DNA from: Diploschistes diacapsis
Taxonomy: Eukaryota
Assembly: GCA_023645945.1 (NCBI GenBank)
Contig: JALAIB010000081.1
Location: 1 to 34,955, forward strand
DNA: 34,955 nt
Reading direction: 5' to 3'
This document shows, piece after piece, positions 3,621 through 34,955 of the stretch. Position 1 is the first letter of the stretch; each line of letters opens with the position of its first letter. The notes below the pieces were generated by a model, which had not been told where the DNA came from, made no database searches, and saw only the letters and a program-made list of their open reading frames with translations. The translations under genes and the position numbers were made by a program.

Positions 3621-4090
3621 AATAAATGAGAATATAATTACTGCACCCGTAACCGCCATTTTTATAGGTGTTTTCCCCTACCACCCCACTATAACTATTT
3701 CTAGGGGGCCTGACCAGAGAATTTATTTCAAAAGATGAGGCTACAATCCGTGACATACCAATGACGTGGGGGCCTAATCTCTTTTCAACAATGTGCGTTG
3801 TCTTAGGGATGCACGGCTTATTCCCAGTCTCAAAGTCGCATGCAGCACCCACAATCAGCTTGACACATGTCCCAACGGCTTTAGCAGTAGTATTACAAAG
3901 TACTACGTGTCGGGCATATATACACTCGACCTCTGCAGGAGTACCTTTCCCTACCTTCTTTCTTTTCCCCGTTGCACCTTCCATGGAAGATACATACCGT
4001 CAGTTATAAGACCCATTACTAGCAGAGTAGCCCGTGTGAATTTTCTCATACTTCACAATGTTAGCAACTCCTAAAGACGCCAACTTCTTC

Positions 4091-4968
4091 ATGGGCGTGC
4101 TCAGGAGGTAGTTTCTCCCTATCCAGCGGCATGTTCTAGCCACCTACTAATACTTCCCAGTGACAGCGATGGGTGCATTGAAGGGAGCCTGGCCAGTCCA
4201 AAGCAAGGCTTCTTGACAACGCTCCTCCTCGTGCTTATTGTCTCCCTTCTCTCCTGTCTCTATCTCTTAGTCGTCTTAGATTATGAATTCTTTCTTGCCA
4301 TCGGTCCTGGTGGTACTCCCTCTACCCCAGCGGGTTATGCCAAGATCTGCCTTCTCCGTCTTCTAGCCAGGAGCAAACGCGGAGTCTTGACTCCACCTCC
4401 AAACCATCTTGATCGCGCTTTTCGTCCATACTTCAGCATTCCAGAGGCATTGCCACAGAGATCACGGTCGAGACCACGAAGTGCCGGCCTAGCACCCCAT
4501 CGCCAAATCACCCAGAAAGGCAGCGCCCAGGATGTCCTCACCCTGGCCACCGCATTCAAGGATCTCGCGAGGAAGAACCCCACCGTCCTCCAGGAAGGCG
4601 TGTCGTGCTTCGAGAAACACAACCTCGGGCTCTTCCTGACGCCCTCTCCTGCCGACGAAGCGCTTCTGGCCAAGGAGCACCACCTTCCAACCAAGACCAG
4701 AGTATCGAGACGCGTAACCTGCGGCGTTCCGCCGGAGGTTGCGCACATGCATGGCAGCGAAGGAAGCCTGCATTTGACGCTCCACCCGCAGGACGCCGCG
4801 GCGGTTATTCAACGAGGATGGGGTGAGAGACATCCCTTAGCAGGACGTTGGCTGCTGAGCGAGTTCATGATGATTTATGCCCCGGTTGGGAAGGAGGAGC
4901 TGAAGTGTGTCATGGACATTGTGAGGGCAGCGGCTTGGTGGGTTGGGAGCGTGGAACTGGAGGCTTGA
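4091..4968 (+). CDS. Luciferase-family (fungal Luz / DUF5519-like) domain protein with an N-terminal transmembrane helix
   Basis: Exon 4091-4107, intron 4108-4160 (GTAGTT, TACTAAT, CAG), exon 4161-4968. Motifs: DYEFFLAIGPGGTP, LPQRSRSRP...PHRQITQ, AHMHGSEGSLHLTLHPQDA, GWGERHPLAG, MIYAP. Confidence 0.85.
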
Positions 4969-8680: not shown

Positions 8681-9964
8681 CAAGGAAGCATCAGAACCCC
8701 TGCTGTATGGCAGCACCGAGCGACAACCCTCTCGTACACAGAGCACGAGATGCTTTGGGCCGCGCTCTCAGAAAGCCATGCATGTATAAAGCGTATAATC
8801 ATCTGCTAGGTAGAACAAGCACAAAAGAGCAGAGAGTAAAACTTACTATCTTGCATGCCCAAGGTTCAAGCTACACCAAATACACTTCACTCCACAGCCC
8901 CTGATCGAAGCTTGGGGCAAACCTTCATCCTGACGGAGCATGCAGCGTTCCCAGTATCTTGTTCAGGTCCTTTTTGCGAAGGGGGATAGGACTACTGCAT
9001 CTGTGGAACGGAACGTTTGATTGATGCTCGCTGTGATTGCAGATTTTGTGGGAAGATTGGCCCCCAACCCAAGGCGCTAAACCCAAGACAGTCCACATCT
9101 TGTGATTGGCCGGCGCATCGCTCCAGCCAAAAATAACTTTAACCGCAACTTTGATCCTTCAGGCCTTTGTATGGGAACACAAAGGATCGACCCTGAAGAA
9201 AGAGCGTGGAGTCCTCTTCTACCGGCTCACGATCCTACCATGCGTGCAGTGAAGGATTTGCGCAAAAGATAACGTTACGGCCATCGGCCATCGGCCGTCG
9301 AGGCCAGGTTCGGTGTTAATCTGTTCGATGTTAATCTTCTACGCATCTCGAACTACGAAAAAGTATCGAGGATATTGATTGTTTCAAGCCAATCCATCTC
9401 CATGAGGATTCATGCTAGTACGGAGAAAGGGAAATCAAATCAATTACACAACTTGCCACGCGCTGTTCACAGGATGCCTGCATGTAGTATGTTACAGCAA
9501 GCAAGATTACCACAGAAGCTTGGGTGCAGATACCTTGTGACTGGCGCGGATCGATAGAGTTCAGTGAATCAAGCACTTAAATACCAGAGATGCTCACGTT
9601 CCTTGACTGTCGTTGGTACTTTTCCAGCACGGTGATCCCAGCTTTATTGATTCCTATTCGTTCGTTACCGGCATAACCGTCAAGTATTCCCTATTACATT
9701 CTTTGTTCAGTCCCCATTGTTAGCCTCCAATATGTGCCATCGAGGTGTGTTTCATCTCGCTTGCTCATAAGTTCTACTGTAAGTATCCTATGTGTTCGAC
9801 CTGGCAGTGTCACGCCGACCTTTGGCAGCAACAATAAGTCAGAAATTCCCAAGCTTCTGACACTTCAAGTTTTTTTTTCAAATCCAGAAACGCAGCACTC
9901 TCTTCCCGTACCCCAAACTTCCCTCTACATCCCCATCCACATCCTCGTCACCGTCTTCCCCACA

Positions 9965-11013
9965 ATGCTCTCCATTACCCTCCTCTCCCTCGGCGCTCTC
10001 GGCCTGGTAGCCGCCGCCTCCGACGCGCCCATCACAACCAACAACCCCCTCGGCGCCACCTACATGGCCATGCTCCCCTGCAGCAACAGCACGCCGATCC
10101 GCGGCTCCGTCCTCGGCACCACCAACTCGAACGGCTCCGGCATCGACTTCACCGTCTCCCTCGACCACATCCCCGTGACCGGCGGTCCCTACATCTACCA
10201 CATCCACCAGTACCCCGTCCCCTCCACGGGCAACTGCACGGGTACGGGGGCACACCTGGACCCCGAGAACCGCGGCGAGGAGCCGGGGTGCGATATCACG
10301 AAGCCGGAGACGTGCCAGGTTGGCGATCTAGCCGGCAAGTTCCCCTTCCTTCCTTCCTTCCTTGCTCTTTCTTCCCCCCCAACCTTCGTTCGAAACGATC
10401 TAAGAAAACATGTCCAATAGGCAAACACGGCTCCGTAAACACCACCTCCTACGGCACCCAGTCAGTTTCCTTCCCCACGGGCACCTCAGGCCACGTGCTC
10501 GCGCGCAAGAACGTCACTGCTGACCTGCACCTCAGATACCTCGACCTCTTCGTCTCCAGCGAGCCGGGCACCCCCGCGTTTTTCGGCAACCGCTCGCTCG
10601 TCGTGCACGACGGGTCCGGCGATCGGATCGCCTGTGCGAATTTCACGGCGCTGCAGGCTGGTGTTGGTGGAGGCGGAGGCGGAAGTGGGGCCAACGCGAC
10701 GTCCACGAAGTCCGCTACTGCTGCGAAGCACAGCACGGCGACGGCGACGGAGACAGGGGCGGGCGCGGGTACGGCCACATGCCATGGCGCTACTGCTGCG
10801 AGTACTGAGTATGCGACGGCAGCCTCGGCGACGAGCACGCGCCACGCCACCACCACCAGCACTACTATAGACACGGGCACCGCCCCAGCCGCCGTGACGC
10901 CCACTGCCTCGCTAAACGCGACCGCCATCCACCCCTTCACCGGCACCGCCGCGGCAGCCAAGCGCCTGAGCGCTGGAGCCGTGCTTCTGGCGGGCCTTGC
11001 GTTCTTTTTGTGA
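9965..11013 (+). CDS. Secreted, GPI-anchored Cu-only superoxide dismutase (Candida SOD4/5/6-type)
   Basis: Signal peptide MLSITLLSLGALGLVAAA. Exons 9965-10334, 10421-10460 and 10536-11013. Motifs: YHIH, C..TGAHLDP, CQVGDLAGKHG, RSLVVH..RIACANF. Thr/Ala-rich stalk and hydrophobic C-terminus GAVLLAGLAFFL. Confidence 0.92.
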
Positions 11014-20386: not shown

Positions 20387-21139
20387 TCGGATTATGGCGC
20401 TGATTGAAAGATATGCGCATGTTGAAACTCTTGAGATCGCTTGCTACTATAAAATATATTATATATAATAAGAGGAAAAGAAGTTATCTAAGGAACAAAA
20501 GGAAACAGAGCGCTAGAGATCAGCCCCTAACATCACGCGTATCACGGCGCTGTGTTGAATTCAGTTGCAATGCGAATACTTTGTGTTGCCCTTGGTCGGT
20601 GGGACTTACAATGGGTGAAACCACCTGCAGCCATCACCCGCTTACAATCCAGACACTCCCAGCTACCGAGCATTTGGAACGATGAACACGAGTTGCAGGT
20701 GATCACCAAACGTTACAGAGCATTCTGACTATTTTCTTTGGCGTCTACTCTATATGCGTTTTCGGCAACATATGAGCAGGAGATCACCTTCCTAGCCGCA
20801 CGATGGGCGCATAGGCTTCAATTACATCCAAACAGACCAGCAGAGATTGAGATTATATTATTGTCGATCGTACTAAAAGGCAGTTGTCAAGCTTGTGGAT
20901 TAAAGATTATGAAGGGAAAACGAAAAAGTGCAAGAAACACGTGCAGCGTTTGAACGGATCCCCATTGGACAATATGCGAGCCAATCATTCGCTCCCACTG
21001 CACCCTCTGCACCCTCACGAAACCCACAATGTTGTGTGCCCGGTGTAAAATCCAACACCGTCGAACTCAAGCACTCAACTGCCACGCAAATTCCTCACCA
21101 AAAGAATTCTAACTGTTCTTTTGGAAGACTGTCCATATC

Positions 21140-22430
21140 ATGTCGAAAATCACGTAAGCACAATATTCATTGCAGCCTCTACCACCAGCCGATAGGCTTT
21201 CACTCTAGAAAACCGATCTCAATTTCGACATCATACAAGGAGAGACTGACGATATTCCAGAGTCGCCGGAGTACGGACCAACGTGCAGGAGCTCTTGAAG
21301 TATTCCACCGAAGAGAAAAAGAGAAAATTTCTCGAGACTGTCGAGTATGTTACTGGCCTGGGGATGCGATGTCCTGCGCACTGCTGTGGGAGCGTCATCT
21401 TAGAACAATGCTCACTGGATTGAAGATTGCAGATTGGGCTGAAAAACTATGACCGTAAGCCATTCCGATCTATGAAGATCAAGAAACCCAGGCTAAGACT
21501 GTGCAGCGTACGGTATCTTTCTGTGAAGCATCAAAGACACAAATATTGACAGCCACCAGTCAGCGTGACAAGCGTTTCTCCGGCACTGTGAAGCTACCAA
21601 CCGTCCCCCGTCCAAGAATGAGCATATGGTATGGAACATCCTTAAGCGACTTGGTTGATGAGCAAAGTGCGGATCAGGGACTGAGTGTTCGCAGCATTCT
21701 TGGTGACCAGCACGATATCGATAGGGCCAAGCACGTTGGTGTAGATGCCATGTCCAGTGAAGATCTGAAGAAACTCAACAAAAATAAAAAGGTCTTCGAA
21801 TACTCTACAAACTGTGGTTTTGCAGCTAATTCATCTTAAAGCTCATCAAGAAGCTTGCCCGCAAGTAGTTGTTTCGTACATTGGGGCTATTTAACGATTG
21901 CTAAGAGAGAATTTAGATACGATGCCTTTGTTGCCTCCGATTCGTTGATTAAGCAGATTCCACGACTCTTAGGTCCAGGTCTATCCAAAGGTCAGGTCCC
22001 TGGACTGTTGCTAAAGATGATCCTGATGTTGAGATAGCTGGCAAATTTCCAACTCCAATATCTCATGCGGAGGATTTAAACGGCAAGATTACTGAGGTAA
22101 AGAGCACGATCAAGTTCCAACTAAAGAAGGTGCTTTGCCTTGCGGTTGCAGTCGGAAGTATGTCTCCATCCTTCCTTGCAACATCAGATCGCGAACAGTC
22201 ATGTCTTATGAAAGAGCATCTGGGCCGATGTTGCGCGATCATATGGGTCATTTTTGCTTTTCTACCACAACCACTAACATGACTTAGATATTGAGATGTC
22301 TGAAGACGAGTTGATCTCGAACATCATGCTTGCGATCAACTATCTCGTCAGTTTGCTGAAGAAGGGCTGGCAGAACGTGGGCTCCTTGACTATCAAGGCG
22401 ACAATGAGTCCACCGAAACGTCTGTATTAG
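21140..22430 (+). CDS. RPL1: 60S ribosomal protein uL1 (L1/L10a), 217 aa, 10 exons including a 1-nt exon
   Basis: Exons 21140-21153, 21261-21344, 21426-21454, 21507, 21560-21628, 21695-21791, 21842-21864, 21917-21990, 22038-22157 and 22288-22430 total 654 nt. Protein: MSKIT...[24 protein letters not shown]...LGPGLSKAGKFPTP...[23 protein letters not shown]. Confidence 0.97.
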
Positions 22431-23227
22431 GTGCAACTATGAGTCAGAAACTTCAGGTTCTTGACATGAAATAGGCCTTGTGTCGTAGAATCAAATAAGT
22501 ATTACAAAAATCCAGAATGAAGTACCAATTAAGCTTCATTTATGGCAATGACGTGGTGATAACAAGTAGCTGCTCTTGCCATGCCAATAGAGGGTGATTT
22601 ACGGCTTGATCGTATAGATGTAGAGACCGCTATGGCAATCCGACCACACCACATAGTAGTAGGCAGTAATCCACTGACAGCCTTACCTACTCTAATCTCA
22701 TGCCGTAACCCTCCGTAGCAGCTTTGGCTATATGTTTTTGAAGAAGCAGCACAAATCCAGCGAAGCACTGCCTCGATCTTCCAAAGCTCCACAATAGAAT
22801 GCCCTCAACCCATCCCAAACAAACGATGGTGTGTATAGCATGTAGCATCCACTCCACAACCCCCGCCCACGAAAAAAAACCCAAAGGGCTCCGGACGACG
22901 CTTGTATTGGAAAAAGCGGACGCAGAAAATCTTCACTCAAGGGGGCCGGGAACGGAAGAAAACCCACGTCAAGCTGACAATACCCCATCTGACAAAAGAA
23001 AGGTAGAGCTCAAAAGGGCGATCCTCAGCAAGCCGCCGTAGCGGAGCCCCCATGGTTTTTAGGTAGATTTTACTACTGATGATGAAGAAGAAAAGAAAAA
23101 GGAAAAGGATGGGATGTTTTTTTCAGTGTGGAATTTGTAGTGCCGGTGGTAGGGCTGGGAGAGGGCTTGCTTTGGCGTGGGGTGTTTTGGTGGTGGGTGG
23201 CGCCCGAGGTGGGCCGGATTGGCCGCC

Positions 23228-23255: not shown

Positions 23256-23693
23256 CTGCGTTTGATAACAGGAGCTTGTGGCAGTCCAAGCAGAGCAAGC
23301 AGCCGGGGCCGCTAAGCCCCCAGCGGAGTGGTTTGCCTTGGCATACCATCGGCAGACATCAATACAATACAAGTTGGCACACCATAGAAGGGTTCTTCAG
23401 ATTAATTCTAAAATAGATCTGAAGCTTCCAGGAGACCTAGAAGTACTAGGGATTTAGTTTACAATTAGTCTGAAGCATCTCTCGGGCTTTTGTTTGGAAC
23501 AGTAATTAATAATATCGCCTCGGCAAAGTTCCAACCCCTGTACACTTCTCAGGTTCTAAGCAGGTCACTTCTCTACCAGAACATCGTTGGTTCTTCTTTT
23601 GGAAGTTCTGTATCACTTGGACTCAGGGTGCGGCGGCATCATGGCGTCTCTGGTATTCGATCCGTTGGGCTGAAGATATACTCGTTTGCTGTT

Positions 23694-26329
23694 ATGGAAG
23701 GCTCGGTCTCAAGTTCTTCACACCCTAAAAGCGCTGTGCGCCAGGATAGCCATCGCTCCAGCGCCAATCCCGAGACTTCAAGGTTCTCAGCGCGGCGTCC
23801 TTCGAGCCGCGCGCAAGTGCCCACTTCCACGTCCCCCGAAGTCATTTCTTCCCTGATCTCTTCGCTTTCTGCCATATCGGCCCCAGCCGAAGATTTCTAC
23901 GACAGCTTGATACCCGATGGAGCAGTTTCAAAGTCTGCGCCTCCTCCTATCCCGAGGTCCCACTTGTCACACAACGTAAGAGACGACACCATTCAGGAGC
24001 ATCCTCGGCCTGGGGTATTCTTGCACCCAGATGAAGCAGCCATACCGCCAATCGTTCGAACGTCAAAGCCTCCTTCAGGTTTCTCGCCCGTTACGGCGCC
24101 CAAAAAAAACAAAGCGCCTCCTGTCTTGTTCACGACGTCGAGCATCCATGACTTGAGACGTTCCAGATCATCAATTGGTAGTGTTAGCATCGGGCCACGC
24201 CATAAGCCTTCTTCAACGAGCCTACAAACATTCTCGACGTCCAACTCTTGGAGCAGCAAGAGTTTAAGACTCATCGCTTCAAAGGAAAAATTGCGGGAAT
24301 TTGATAAAGAGCGCAAGCGCGGGGCCTACAACTTGTCTCCTGCAACGAGCAACGGAGAGTGGCCTCCTGGCAGCTATACCGATCTGTCAAGTCTCGCGAA
24401 CCGAATTTCTCCTGACGTTGTTGGTGGCTCTACGGGGCCAGAAATACCAGCCAGAATTGCGGTTTGGCATGTTCCAGCTCCACGTGAACCTATCACCGCA
24501 TCGTCCTTTGTTCCCAGCTCGCCCGGTTCGCCTTCAAAAATACCGGTTCCGGATCGACGCTCATCGTTGCGACATAGCTTCGGGCCAACTGAAAAGCGCA
24601 AACACAAGACGTCCCCGCATAAGGGCAAACGCAAGGATACTCGCTCCGACCCAAGCACGGGTTCTGAGGAGGGTCAAGAGTCACCAATGAAAATGAAGGG
24701 CAAAGAAAAGGCAACGAGCGACGCCGAGGAAGGTGTGGCCAGACGTATCCAAGAGCTCAAGATGCAAAAAGAGCTACGTCGGATCTCGCAGCAGACCATC
24801 GCAGACCGGGAGCGCTCTGAGGAAGCTGAGAGAATTGAAAAATCTTTGAGGGTGGCAGATTCAAATTTGGGGAACAAGATGGATGTTAGAAGCGCGAGTG
24901 CTCTGACCGCACCAGGAAAGGAAAACTCCAACCCAGCAGGGGATGCTGATACTACGAAACCTTGGCGTGACCCTCTGACAAGATCAGCGACCGAACCGAT
25001 TCCTCTCGATCACACAAAGACCTTTGATCACATCGCTCTACCCCGGGTATCGAGTTCGATGGGCCGCCCCTTGCCTTCTTTGGCCGATTCTATCGATGAA
25101 GCTATTGATGAATACCTCGCAAGCCCAAGACTGTCACAAAAGGTCAAGGATCCATGTACCGGCCGGGTCATTGCATTTTCAGAGGTTGGAGATCCTACAG
25201 GATCCATAGTCTTTTGCTGCGTGGGAATGGGCACGACGCGGTACCTTATGGCCTTCTACGATGAACTTGCGACGACCTTCAAACTCCGTATCATTACCCC
25301 AGACAGGCCTGGCATAGGAGAGAGTCAACCCCATGCGGATGGTACGGATACTCCGCTTGGTTGGCCAGGTAAGCAGTCGTAACAACTCGTTAGGGCGGCA
25401 TGCTAAGTCTCGTAGATGACATCCGGACTATTTGCGCAAACCTCGGCATATCGCGGTTTTCCATCCTAGCGCACTCTGCTGGGGCTGTCTATGCGCTTGC
25501 AACAGCATTACGAATGCCGGAGCACATCCGAGGGCGTGTTCATCTAATGGCACCATGGATACCGCCCTCTCAGATGACAGCGGTAGGTATACAAAAAGAC
25601 CAGGTGCCGAACACCTCCTTGCCCTATGGGCAACGACTTCTAAGGTCTCTGCCCACACCCTTCCTAAAAGTTGCAAACTCAGGCTTCTTTGCAATGACAA
25701 GCAATTCGCTCGCGTCAGCTATGCCAAAGAACTCTCCCAGGCGCAAAAACCGGCGTTCCCTCAACGATCTTGACCACGCAACGATCCAAGCAAAAGCGAG
25801 AGAGCGTCGAAGCAAGCGCAGCTCCATGCCGGTCGACCGGCCTGCCGAGTCGCCCTCGACTCCAAACGGCTTACGCCCAAACGCAGACACGGAGTCCATA
25901 ATAAGCTCTTCGCTTAGTGCACTACCAGGTAGGGACAAAGAACCAGAGTATCAGTTCCGCCTTACGCACGCCATCTGGGAGGCAGCAACTACCAACGCCA
26001 ACCCAGCCGTCGATCTCCTTGTTTGCCTAGAACGACGGCAGGACATCGGTTTCCGTTACGCGGACGTGAGCCGGGAAGTCGTTATACATCATGGCGCCAA
26101 GGACACGAGGGTGCCTGTGGAGAACGTTGAGTGGCTAGCCAACCGGATGAGGAGGTGCGAGCTAAGGCTACTCGAGGACGAAGGGCACGGCCTGATGGCG
26201 AGCGCTACGGTCATGAGCAATGTTCTGAGCGAGATGGCGCAGGAGTGGGACGATTGGAATGTCCTTACGAAGATGAGCTCCCAGAATGCGTTGGAGAAGG
26301 GCGAGAGGATCAATTGGCCGCTGAGATGA
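23694..26329 (+). CDS. Alpha/beta-fold hydrolase with a long disordered N-terminus
   Basis: Exons 23694-25368 and 25416-26329. Motifs: FSEVGDPTG, TPDRPGIGES, nucleophile elbow AHSAG, HHGAKDTRVP, EGHGL. Confidence 0.9.
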
Positions 26330-32255: not shown

Positions 32256-34955
32256 ATGGACGACCCAGCAATGAAGCAGTACTTCGCGGACTCGCCGCCT
32301 ACGATGGTGAAGCTGGAGATTGAGCCGCACTTCTCAAATCTCAGTGAGAGGGAGAAGGCTTATGCGCACCACATGTCGCGGTTAGTGGACATGTCTCGTT
32401 TGCTTTCCTTCATTGATGTCCCAACTTATCAAGCGAATCCTTTAATGTGTTACAATGGCCGCAACAATGTTCTGCTGCGCCCTGAAAACAAATGTGGAAG
32501 TTGAGCCCAAAGAGGCGTATATCATCAGAGCATCCCCCAAGTACATGCTGCTCTTTGCATTTGGCTCTTGGCTGGCGTATTATTTCGTTGAAGATCTGAG
32601 CTGAGGCCTATAAAGCGCTGCCTATCATGGAACCCGCATCACTCTCCGCCAGGTCAGCCCCGAGGCGGAAGCTATCTATGATCTCATCATCGCTCTATAC
32701 CATAGCTGCGGCGGTGACTGGAAGAAGCTGCAGGAACAGACTAGAGTGTCGAGCGAGGACGTAGACCACTTCCTTAGCTATGCTGCGCAGTTTTTGGGCA
32801 ACCTGGGTGAGCTGAAGCATTGGTACCTCTGCGTGTTCGATATGATGTATCCTCGGAGTTTTTTCAAAAGCCAATCACGTTCGTAAATTGCACCGAGAAT
32901 GGCTACTATTGGACCCCATTAAGGTGACAAGGGTACATCATATCAGACATATAAAGGTAATCCTACAGCTTCAGACACAATAGCTAACCCTATTATCAGG
33001 TAACTACAAAGGCTTTGGCGATTCCAAATTCGTTCCGCGCATCTCCCCCTCAGCCTTCGAGCAGCTTGTGTCTAAAGATGTTAAAGCAAGATCCTTCTTT
33101 GAAAGCACCGGCGGAAAGAATGGGTCCATCTTCGCCACCCCTGACAAGCCCGGCCTCATGCACCTGGGTTTCATTGACCAAGGCCATATGTCCACCTACT
33201 ACCCAGAGTCACCCACCATCACAAAGCAAGAGATCGACATCATCTCTGAGGTCATGGCTAAGAATGACATCCTTCCCGAAAATACTCGTCTCCAGAAGCT
33301 GCAGTCGGGGGACTTCGACCTCCTTATCGCTTCTGGCATCTCCAATCCCCCTTCCTCCGAGATCGACTCTACGGATCACCAAACCTCTTTCCCCCTCCCT
33401 TCACCACTGGACGGGAAATCTCTCCACCTGGTCTTCGGCGACCACCGCGAAGAAATGGCCAAAGCCGCGCTCTCAATCCGCAAAGCGGGCCACTACGTCG
33501 CGAACCCGACCCAAGCCGCCATGCTGGACGCCTACGCCAAGTCCTTCGGCACGGGCTCCCTCAAAGCCTTCAAAACTGCCCAAGAACATTGGGTGCGCGA
33601 CCTCAAACCCACCGTCGAGTCCAACATCGGCTTCGTCGAAACCTACCGCGACCCGGCCGGCATCCGCGGCGAATGGGAGGGCTTCGTCGCAACAGTCAAC
33701 CAAGAGCGCACCCTCGCCTTCGGGCGCCTTGTGTCCGCTGCGCCGCGCCTCATCCCCACCCTCCCCTGGCCGAAGGATTTCGAAAAGGATACCTTCAAGG
33801 CGCCAGACTTCACCTCCCTCGAGGTGTTAGCTTTCACCAGCTCAGGCATCCCAGCGGGTATTAACATCCCCAACTACGACGACATCCGGCAGGCCGTCGG
33901 CTTCAAGAACGTCAGCCTCGGCAACGTGCTCGGCGCCAAGTCGCCCAACGAACCCGTGCCCTTCATCGACGCCGACGACCTCGACGCGTACACCAAGCAC
34001 CGCGACGCCGCGTTCGAGGTCCAGGTCGGCATCCACGAGCTGCTGGGCCACGGCACGGGCAAGATCCTCGCCGAGACTCAACCGGGGGCGCACAACTTCG
34101 ACCAAAACAACCCACCGCTCAGCCCGGTCACGGGCCAGCCGATAAGCAGCTGGTACCGCCCCGGCCAAACCTACTCCAGCGTCTTCGGCAGCCTGGGCTC
34201 GGCGTACGAGGAGTGCCGGGCCGAGTGCGTCGCCATGTACCTGGCCTGCGACATGTCGATCCTCAAGCTCTTCGACCTGGACGCCGGGGCCGGGCTGACG
34301 CACCTGGCGCAGCACAGCAGCACGATGATGACGACGACGACGACGACGACGGCGGAAACCGAAACCGAAACCGCGAAGGCAAAGCAGGACCCGTACCGCG
34401 GCGTGGACGTGCGCAGCCAGGCGTTCGCGACGCTGCACGCGGCGTACCTGTCCATGGCGCGGGCCGGGATCGCGGCGCTGGAGATGTGGGATCCCAAGAG
34501 CGGCAAGTGGGGGCAGGCGCACAGCCGCGCGCGGTGGGGGATACTGCAGTGTTTCCTCGACGCCTCGTCGGAGGAGCACGCGACGCCCTTCTGCGCCATC
34601 AACCCCGCCCCAGGTGGTGGCACCGACGCCGCGGACGAGGATCTCGACGCGCTGACCGTCCGCATCGACCCCATGCAGATCCTGACGACGGGCCGGCGCG
34701 CGGTCGGCGAGTTCCTGACGCGCCTGCATGTGTATAAGACGACCGCGGACGTCGAGGCGGGGAGGGAGCTGTTCGAGAGGATGACGAGGGTGAGAGGGAG
34801 GGAGCATGGGGAGTGGTGGGCGGAGAAGGTGAGGGCGGTGGTGCTGCGGAAGAGGGTGCCGAGGAAGGTGTTTGTCATGGGGAACACGGTCGAGGTGGAG
34901 GAGGGAGATGTGGGGAGGGTGGAGTTGAGGGAGTATGAGGTTTCGAGGGAGGGGG
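32256..34955 (+). CDS. DPP3: Dipeptidyl peptidase III (M49 zinc metallopeptidase), 3' end beyond the window
   Basis: Exons 32256-32380, 32616-32806 and 33000 to the window end. Motifs: GNLGNYKGFGDSKF, GFVETYRDP.G.RGEWEG, GINIPNYDDIRQ..GFKNVSLGN, HELLGHG (34034), EECRAE (34208), WGQAH. Absent from the ORF track because it has no stop inside the window. Confidence 0.97.
32824..32959. repeat. 30-bp inverted repeat (136-bp hairpin) within DPP3 intron 2
   Basis: Arms 32824-32853 and 32930-32959 are 23/30 identical; all 7 differences are transitions. Confidence 0.85.
34322..34372 (+). repeat. Coding (ACG)7 and (GAAACC)3 microsatellites in DPP3
   Basis: Encode TMMTTTTTTTAETETET in frame. Confidence 0.9.

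Follow-up and report, generated by a model that had tools for sequence, protein, structure and literature searches.

What restores the reading frame of the uL1 gene at a joint where two coding blocks fail to meet by exactly one base? The question is raised by a stretch of 34,955 nt from Diploschistes diacapsis (contig JALAIB010000081.1 of assembly GCA_023645945.1, forward strand; this whole stretch is called the window below), which carries the gene for ribosomal protein uL1 (RPL1/L10a) on the + strand, from the ATG at 21140 to the TAG at 22428-22430. A run search traced the window to a lichen metagenome. Exon 3 ends ...TAT GAC C at 21454 and the next coding block, exon 5, starts T CAG CGT at 21560, which leaves a phase gap of exactly one base. 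The 105 nt in between can be divided into two complete introns of 52 nt, 21455-21506 and 21508-21559, with a lone C at 21507 separating them. We propose that this C is spliced into the messenger as a one-nucleotide (1-nt) exon, and from the DNA evidence given here we place the probability that it really is at about 0.8.

Anatomy of the uL1 gene

The gene model comprised 10 exons, C21507 included. Membership in the uL1/L10a family (Pfam PF00687) was established by profile match and full-length likeness: exon 10 matched the Ribosomal_L1 profile with 38.9 bits (cut-off 32.2), and exon 9 alone scored 25.2 bits. The parts of the gene, with the basis for each in brackets, were as follows.

21140..22430, + strand: uL1 coding region (gene model; product match to fungal uL1; Pfam PF00687 in exons 9 and 10)
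21140..21153, + strand: exon 1, 14 nt, ATG TCG AAA ATC AC (gene model)
21261..21344, + strand: exon 2 (gene model; protein alignment)
21426..21454, + strand: exon 3, 29 nt, ending GAC C in phase 1 (sequence; gene model)
21455..21506, + strand: intron 3, 52 nt, with donor GTAAGC, branch CTAAG (A at 21496, 10 nt before the end) and acceptor CAG (splice-signal check)
21507..21507, + strand: candidate 1-nt exon C, the middle base of the Pro codon CCT (unchanged in the assemblies X1, X2 and X3 described below)
21508..21559, + strand: intron 4, 52 nt, with donor GTACGG, branch TTGAC (A at 21549, 10 nt before the end) and acceptor CAG (splice-signal check)
21551..21552, + strand: alternative AG acceptor of a rival model, in which the exon would begin at 21553 and Thr-Ser would be gained (2-3 nt past the branch A)
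21560..21628, + strand: exon 5, beginning T CAG CGT GAC AAG in phase 2 (sequence; gene model)
21695..21791, + strand: exon 6 (gene model)
21842..21864, + strand: exon 7, 23 nt (gene model)
21917..21990, + strand: exon 8 (gene model)
22038..22157, + strand: exon 9 (gene model; Pfam match)
22288..22430, + strand: exon 10 with the stop codon (gene model; Pfam match)

When C21507 was counted as an exon, the coding sequence of the gene model was 654 nt long and encoded 217 amino acids (aa), with NYDPQRDKRF running across the joint. When the whole of 21455-21559 was removed as a single intron, 653 nt remained, with a frameshift and an early stop. The base completes the codon CCT for Pro, the residue found at this place in 69 of 71 full-length relatives. 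The joint combines the features by which 1-nt exons can be recognised, namely a one-base phase mismatch within a peptide that is conserved and unbroken in relatives, an AG-N-GT between two complete introns of workable length, and a conserved residue supplied by a single base. The lone C, the coordinates of the two 52-nt introns and the 654-nt coding sequence for 217 aa had all been proposed from an earlier inspection of the DNA (the sequence-only reading), and were borne out by the sequence and the gene model.

The region is a difficult one for automatic gene calling. On the + strand, a frame stays open for 126 codons (21459-21839), running from within intron 3 over C21507 and intron 4 to exon 5 and on through the 66-nt intron 5 and exon 6, and prokaryote-style gene callers emit a false 112-aa protein from it (P0122). 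Five proteins from fungal uL1 loci (P0043, P0065, P0092, P0108 and P0115), Cladophialophora immunda 'isoform 1' among them, take the ATG within TAT GAC C as their start and have exon 5 in the wrong frame (M-T-L/P-x-V-T-S-V-S...), so that the mis-call recurs at this spot.

Splice patterns that restore the protein

All combinations of GT or GC donors with AG acceptors in 21430-21625 were enumerated, with introns of at least 40 nt. This gave 907 splice combinations (101 with one intron, 806 with two), of which 195 were in frame without a stop, since two reading frames run open across the stretch. When the list was read by hand, the pair 21455-21506 and 21508-21559 was the sole pattern of the 907 that gave both NYDPQRDKRF and 217 aa. 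Its product aligned from residue 1 to 217 with fungal uL1 without a gap, at 85-92% identity to the relatives shown.

Conservation at the joint was close to complete. The 71 fungal uL1 proteins of 217 aa aligned without gaps, and all but two carried NYDPQRDKRF exactly. Among 229 proteins examined for QRDKRF, 89 were without the motif and 2 were the window's own reading frames; YDP stood directly before the motif in 137 of the other 138, the last having YDS, and no insertion was seen. More diverse sequences were sampled as 149 representatives of clusters at 50% identity. Seventy-one of these were without the flanking anchors, and in 78 of 78 with them exactly two residues lay between. When the read-through frame 21459-21836 was used as the query, the relatives found all had YDP directly before QRDKRF, and none read through an intron in a like manner. 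As the only pattern with the invariant motif and a gapless 217-aa product, a 1-nt exon forming the middle base of the Pro codon, as put forward in the sequence-only reading, is the best-supported model.

The 195 open and in-frame combinations do leave room for a longer exon 3 or another donor, with part of the 105 nt coding. Examples are an intron 21501-21559, which adds 15 aa, and a GC donor at 21459 joined to the acceptor at 21559, which gives NYDRNQRDKRF. In every pattern of this sort, however, the invariant motif is destroyed or lengthened, and GTGCAG and GCCATT are poorer donors than GTAAGC at 21455. Comparison with related DNA (see below) also tells against coding use of the stretch: the four substitutions found there in X2 amount to an intron-like rate, and one additional base after 21464 in X3, albeit at a depth of only 5.3, frameshifts all models that code through 21455-21500. 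We consider such patterns highly improbable.

A more serious competitor is one intron of 98 nt, 21455-21552, with exon 5 starting at 21553. Thr-Ser would then be gained after Pro in a protein of 219 aa, and C21507, with the AG and GT on either side of it, would be there by coincidence. The sequence-only reading had stated that the alternatives tried all shift the frame. That is correct for a single intron ending at 21559, but the AG at 21551-52 had been overlooked, and it is in frame. The 98-nt intron is open through the joint, has canonical GT-AG ends and lies within the range of this gene's introns (47-130 nt); an automatic gene predictor, unable to place 1-nt exons, would probably pick the acceptor at 21552. 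Against a profile of the 71 fungal uL1 proteins its product scored 455.5 bits and that of the 1-nt exon 462.5 bits, a loss of only 7 bits. Yet none of 216 relatives, the 138 fungal proteins and the 78 diverse representatives, had an insertion at the site, nor was one present in the 71 gapless full-length proteins.

Splice signals and chance expectation

The signals within the 105 nt bear further on this alternative. In introns 3 and 4 the distance from the YTRA-type branch to the acceptor G was 10 nt, and in the other introns of the gene it was 10-12 nt (the branch of intron 2, CTCAC, was placed by eye, 11 nt before its end). The AG at 21551-52, by comparison, follows the sole nearby branch-like motif (TTGAC, A at 21549) by 2-3 nt. 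In yeast, AGs so close to the branch are not known to serve as acceptors. The next YTRA upstream lies 56 nt away with at least one AG in between (the CAG at 21504-06), and in intron 7, too, AGs immediately following the CTAAG branch are passed over. Each 52-nt unit fits among the other intron lengths of the gene (47, 50, 52, 66, 81, 107 and 130 nt), and the GTAAGC and GCTAAG hexamers of intron 3 recur in the 47-nt intron (25369-25415) of a neighbouring hydrolase gene.

To gauge chance, 400,000 random 105-mers were generated to match the gene's other introns in first-order composition, and a count was made of those with an internal HAG-N-GT that had a YTRA branch 9-13 nt before it and neither half shorter than 45 nt. 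The pattern occurred in 702; in 156 of these N was C, and 38 had G at donor position +5 as well. A scan of both strands of the window found 81 complete short-intron-like units, and only one pair of them was spaced by one base, namely introns 3 and 4. The two-intron arrangement around C21507 exceeds chance expectation. A single 98-nt intron would leave these complete internal intron signals to a coincidence of about 1 in 600 to 1 in 10,000, and overall we judge it unlikely.

Accuracy of the DNA and selection on the exons

Contigs from four DNA runs could be placed on 21100-22500 at a likeness of at least 80%.

X1: probable source run, in Logan's own assembly; depth 88; identical to the window
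X2: different organism label, different study; depth 102; one contig over the whole stretch, with 25 substitutions and 6 gaps over 1401 nt
X3: rock metagenome from a third study; depth 5.3; a close contig over 21100-21578
X6: same study as X2; depth about 2; only a 44-nt piece, from another organism

The AG-C-GT was kept in X1, X2 and X3, with no insertion or deletion (indel) at 21454/21455, 21507 or 21559/21560. Within the 105 nt, X2 differed from the window at four positions: 21476, 21497 (CTAAG to CTAAA), 21513 (GTACGG to GTACGA) and 21529. X3 shared the changes at 21513 and 21529, and its additional base after 21464 is what one would expect of non-coding sequence.

These data bear directly on the simplest technical explanation, in which sequencing or assembly dropped a base where exon 3 ends or exon 5 begins, the 105 nt being one ordinary intron. 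A lone missing base beside a run of C is a typical assembly slip, and the sequence-only reading had itself named a missing base as a possible error. No indel was found at the joint in the three assemblies: Logan's assembly of the probable source run was identical, and X2 and X3, which come from other studies, had the same edges. Because the three agree at the exon edges even though X2 and X3 differ from the window elsewhere, an assembly slip at the joint is very unlikely, and we give the lost-base explanation next to no weight.

Comparison with X2 also showed that the gene is maintained. The exons carried 5 substitutions in 654 nt, of which 4 were silent, and the non-exon sequence 20 in 747 nt, so that the exons evolved about 3.5 times more slowly; all indels fell outside exons. 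The uL1 exons are under purifying selection. No second uL1 copy was seen at a likeness of at least 80%, there being one contig only in X1 and one in X2. With a live gene and no second copy seen, the mRNA must regain its frame.

This leaves little room for a single intron 21455-21559 that is simply frameshifted, either in a dead copy or in a gene whose frame is regained by ribosomal frameshifting or RNA editing. Its outer donor and acceptor are good sites, and skipping the base is the simplest single-intron reading. A dead copy is at odds with the other eight junctions, which are intact, with the slow and mostly silent change of the exons, and with the failure to see another copy; uL1 is, moreover, an essential gene of single-copy type. 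As for recoding, neither insertional editing nor programmed frameshifting is known from the mRNAs of nuclear ribosomal protein genes in fungi. We regard a frameshifted single intron as very improbable.

The sole amino-acid difference from X2 in uL1, K27N (codon 27, at 21327), is Lys in the window and Asn in X2. The N-termini of other fungal uL1 proteins mostly read KKRNFLE, and the residue in X2 agrees with these. A contig of another organism in X3 spans the 52-nt intron 7 (21865 to 21918) as joined, the shorter side being only 21 letters long.

Several observations weigh against a 1-nt exon and should be set beside the evidence for it. X2 and X3 are about 98% identical to the window, and the conservation of AG-C-GT in them carries little weight, because with 4 changes in 105 nt a dozen key positions often survive by chance. 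No diverged locus with the same AG-C-GT arrangement is known. When metagenome contigs were scanned for an acceptor immediately preceding the exon 5 sequence, the one locus that came up was a chance bacterial match, within a histidine-kinase-like reading frame, and no fungal one was found. The donor of intron 4 is weak (GTACGG, or GTACGA in X2 and X3) and is preceded by C as the -1 base of the exon, and the in-frame alternative ending at 21552 does exist, at its modest profile penalty. Finally, the run search listed no RNA run for this organism.

Proposed order of splicing

We infer both that the splicing takes place and its likely order from the anatomy of the joint. Introns 21455-21506 and 21508-21559 would be two ordinary short spliceosomal introns, with C21507 retained between them, and each could be recognised alone by intron definition, as is usual for fungal introns of roughly 50 nt. 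A single base separates the intron 3 acceptor (21504-21506) from the intron 4 donor (21508-21513), and the intron 3 branch lies 12 nt upstream of that donor. With the acceptor and branch of intron 3 so close to the donor of intron 4, two spliceosomes presumably cannot act there at once, and the removals would be successive.

Either order would give the same mRNA: the C would be carried on whichever exon it joined first, and the second removal would be an ordinary one. Intron 3 probably goes before intron 4, being transcribed earlier and having the stronger signals. C21507 would then act as the last base of exon 3 before GTACGG, in the manner of a recursive splice site at which one base is retained. 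The product would read GAC C-C-T CAG, or Asp-Pro-Gln, restoring NYDPQRDKRF in a uL1 of 217 aa. Skipping of C21507 would lead to a stop at about codon 54 and probably to a decay-prone mRNA.

Origin and regulation

A 15-nt block is common to the interiors of introns 3 and 4, at nearly equal offsets (TCTATGAAG-ATCAA in one and TCTGTGAAGCATCAA in the other). Their local alignment score was 18, compared with 11.2 ± 2.2 for shuffled sequences, and was reached by 75 of 5000 shuffles; the global score was reached by 69 of 2000. The local score was also higher than that of either intron with any of the 7 other introns of the gene. Tandem Repeats Finder called no 53-nt tandem repeat at introns 3 and 4. 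The shared block is a weak hint that one intron may be a diverged copy of the other.

In contigs of other fungi in X3, TATGACCC stands directly before position 21560, with no intron at the site, and an intron at this site was absent from all read-through frames in the protein database. The AG-C-GT arrangement looks restricted to one lineage. One scenario would be that a neighbouring intron was copied one base away, by duplication or reverse splicing, and so created the 1-nt exon, with two ordered splices and a skipped form that feeds a decay-prone mRNA and thereby buffers the dosage of uL1. We put this forward as speculation, and as a whole it is rather unlikely. Its regulatory part resembles the autoregulatory switch through nonsense-mediated decay suggested in the earlier reading, which found no support: the RNA fold of 21440-21575 was no better than that of shuffled sequences (z = -0.09), and no Rfam family matched in 20900-22700.

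Other features of the window

Downstream of uL1, a neighbouring gene on the + strand (23469-26329) encodes an alpha/beta-hydrolase-type protein of about 900 aa, in two reading frames joined by the 47-nt intron 25369-25415 mentioned above. Its N-terminal 560 aa are without a Pfam domain, and their nearest relatives are metagenome proteins at 57-62% identity; in a protein search with the open reading frame 23469-25379, named matches were spread over many ascomycete classes. Two database proteins, P0004 and P0232, are both assigned to one contig of 17,491 nt, and the relative that carries it may thus have uL1 beside this neighbour as well. Elsewhere in the window the following were noted.

1530-2537, - strand: choline/ethanolamine kinase
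4075-4968, + strand: protein with a Pfam Luciferase domain
10001-11000 and 9838-11013: G+C of 66%, compared with about 50% elsewhere, and long open frames that overlap across the two strands and match no Pfam family
32984-34954, + strand: M49 peptidase of the dipeptidyl-peptidase III type, running off the end of the window

Relation to known systems and implications

One-nucleotide exons have already been published for Fusarium, Coprinopsis and Arabidopsis, and the uL1 candidate would add another of a known kind. The view, held in the sequence-only reading, that they are essentially an Arabidopsis rarity is out of date. In Fusarium CYP621A, a 1-nt exon in the arrangement AG-G-GT was deduced from a phase mismatch with an intronless relative and subsequently borne out by 18 public reads (Nelson and Syed 2026, PMC12940212). 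A long-read annotation of Coprinopsis cinerea with exons of 1-3 nt includes 13 of 1 nt in 13 genes, so that fungal spliceosomes repeatedly handle such exons (PMC12230235). Coprinopsis cinerea is a basidiomycete, unlike the lichen-associated ascomycete that carries the present gene.

The Fusarium gene offers the closest parallel. Both genes belong to filamentous ascomycetes with short introns, both have a one-base phase gap inside an invariant motif, and in both an AG-N-GT, lying in an intervening sequence roughly double the length of a usual intron, contributes the central base of a codon. They differ in the base itself, which is G in Fusarium (AGGGT, which fits both splice-site consensus sequences) and C here. 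They also differ in expression, the P450 being rarely expressed and uL1 presumably among the most highly expressed genes, and in their record: CYP621A has RNA support and its arrangement is conserved across at least 20 species, whereas the uL1 case is known from three near-identical DNA sequences. In Arabidopsis APC11, a constitutive single-nucleotide exon was tested in vivo with constructs fused to green fluorescent protein (GFP) and, as proposed here for uL1, is required to keep an essential gene in frame (Guo and Liu 2015, PMC4674806).

The earlier comparison with stwintrons was a loose one. Stwintrons are nested: the external intron has its donor, branch or acceptor split by an internal one, and the mRNA keeps nothing from between the two (Fekete et al. 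2017, PMC5587772). The two uL1 introns resemble stwintrons, and the related shift of intron position by 1 nt, in being two U2-type introns in a short stretch of Pezizomycotina DNA, at positions 1 nt apart, that would be removed consecutively. The defining feature, an internal intron that interrupts an external one, was not found: unlike the nested units of a stwintron, which leave no residue, the uL1 introns stand side by side, each is complete before splicing, and one base would be kept. Recursive splice sites of long animal introns are a further point of comparison. There an acceptor is followed at once by a donor, removal is stepwise and no base is left. The uL1 joint is like them in its adjoining acceptor and donor, and unlike them in that one coding base would be kept and the introns are 52 nt, not very long.

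In the limited collection of literature searched, no 1-nt exon was reported in uL1/L10a or in lichen fungi. If RNA confirms the present reading, the locus would provide a 1-nt exon in a ribosomal protein gene, with none found reported for uL1/L10a. It would also carry a warning for annotation: because gene predictors cannot place 1-nt exons, uL1 would be called frameshifted, truncated or with a false 2-aa insertion in the genomes of lichen and rock fungi. That the base is C and not G would mean that a micro-exon need not match the exon-side splice consensus. And because uL1 mRNA is made in very large amounts, a single base would have to be included with high fidelity at high flux, a harder test of the splicing machinery than the rarely expressed Fusarium P450.

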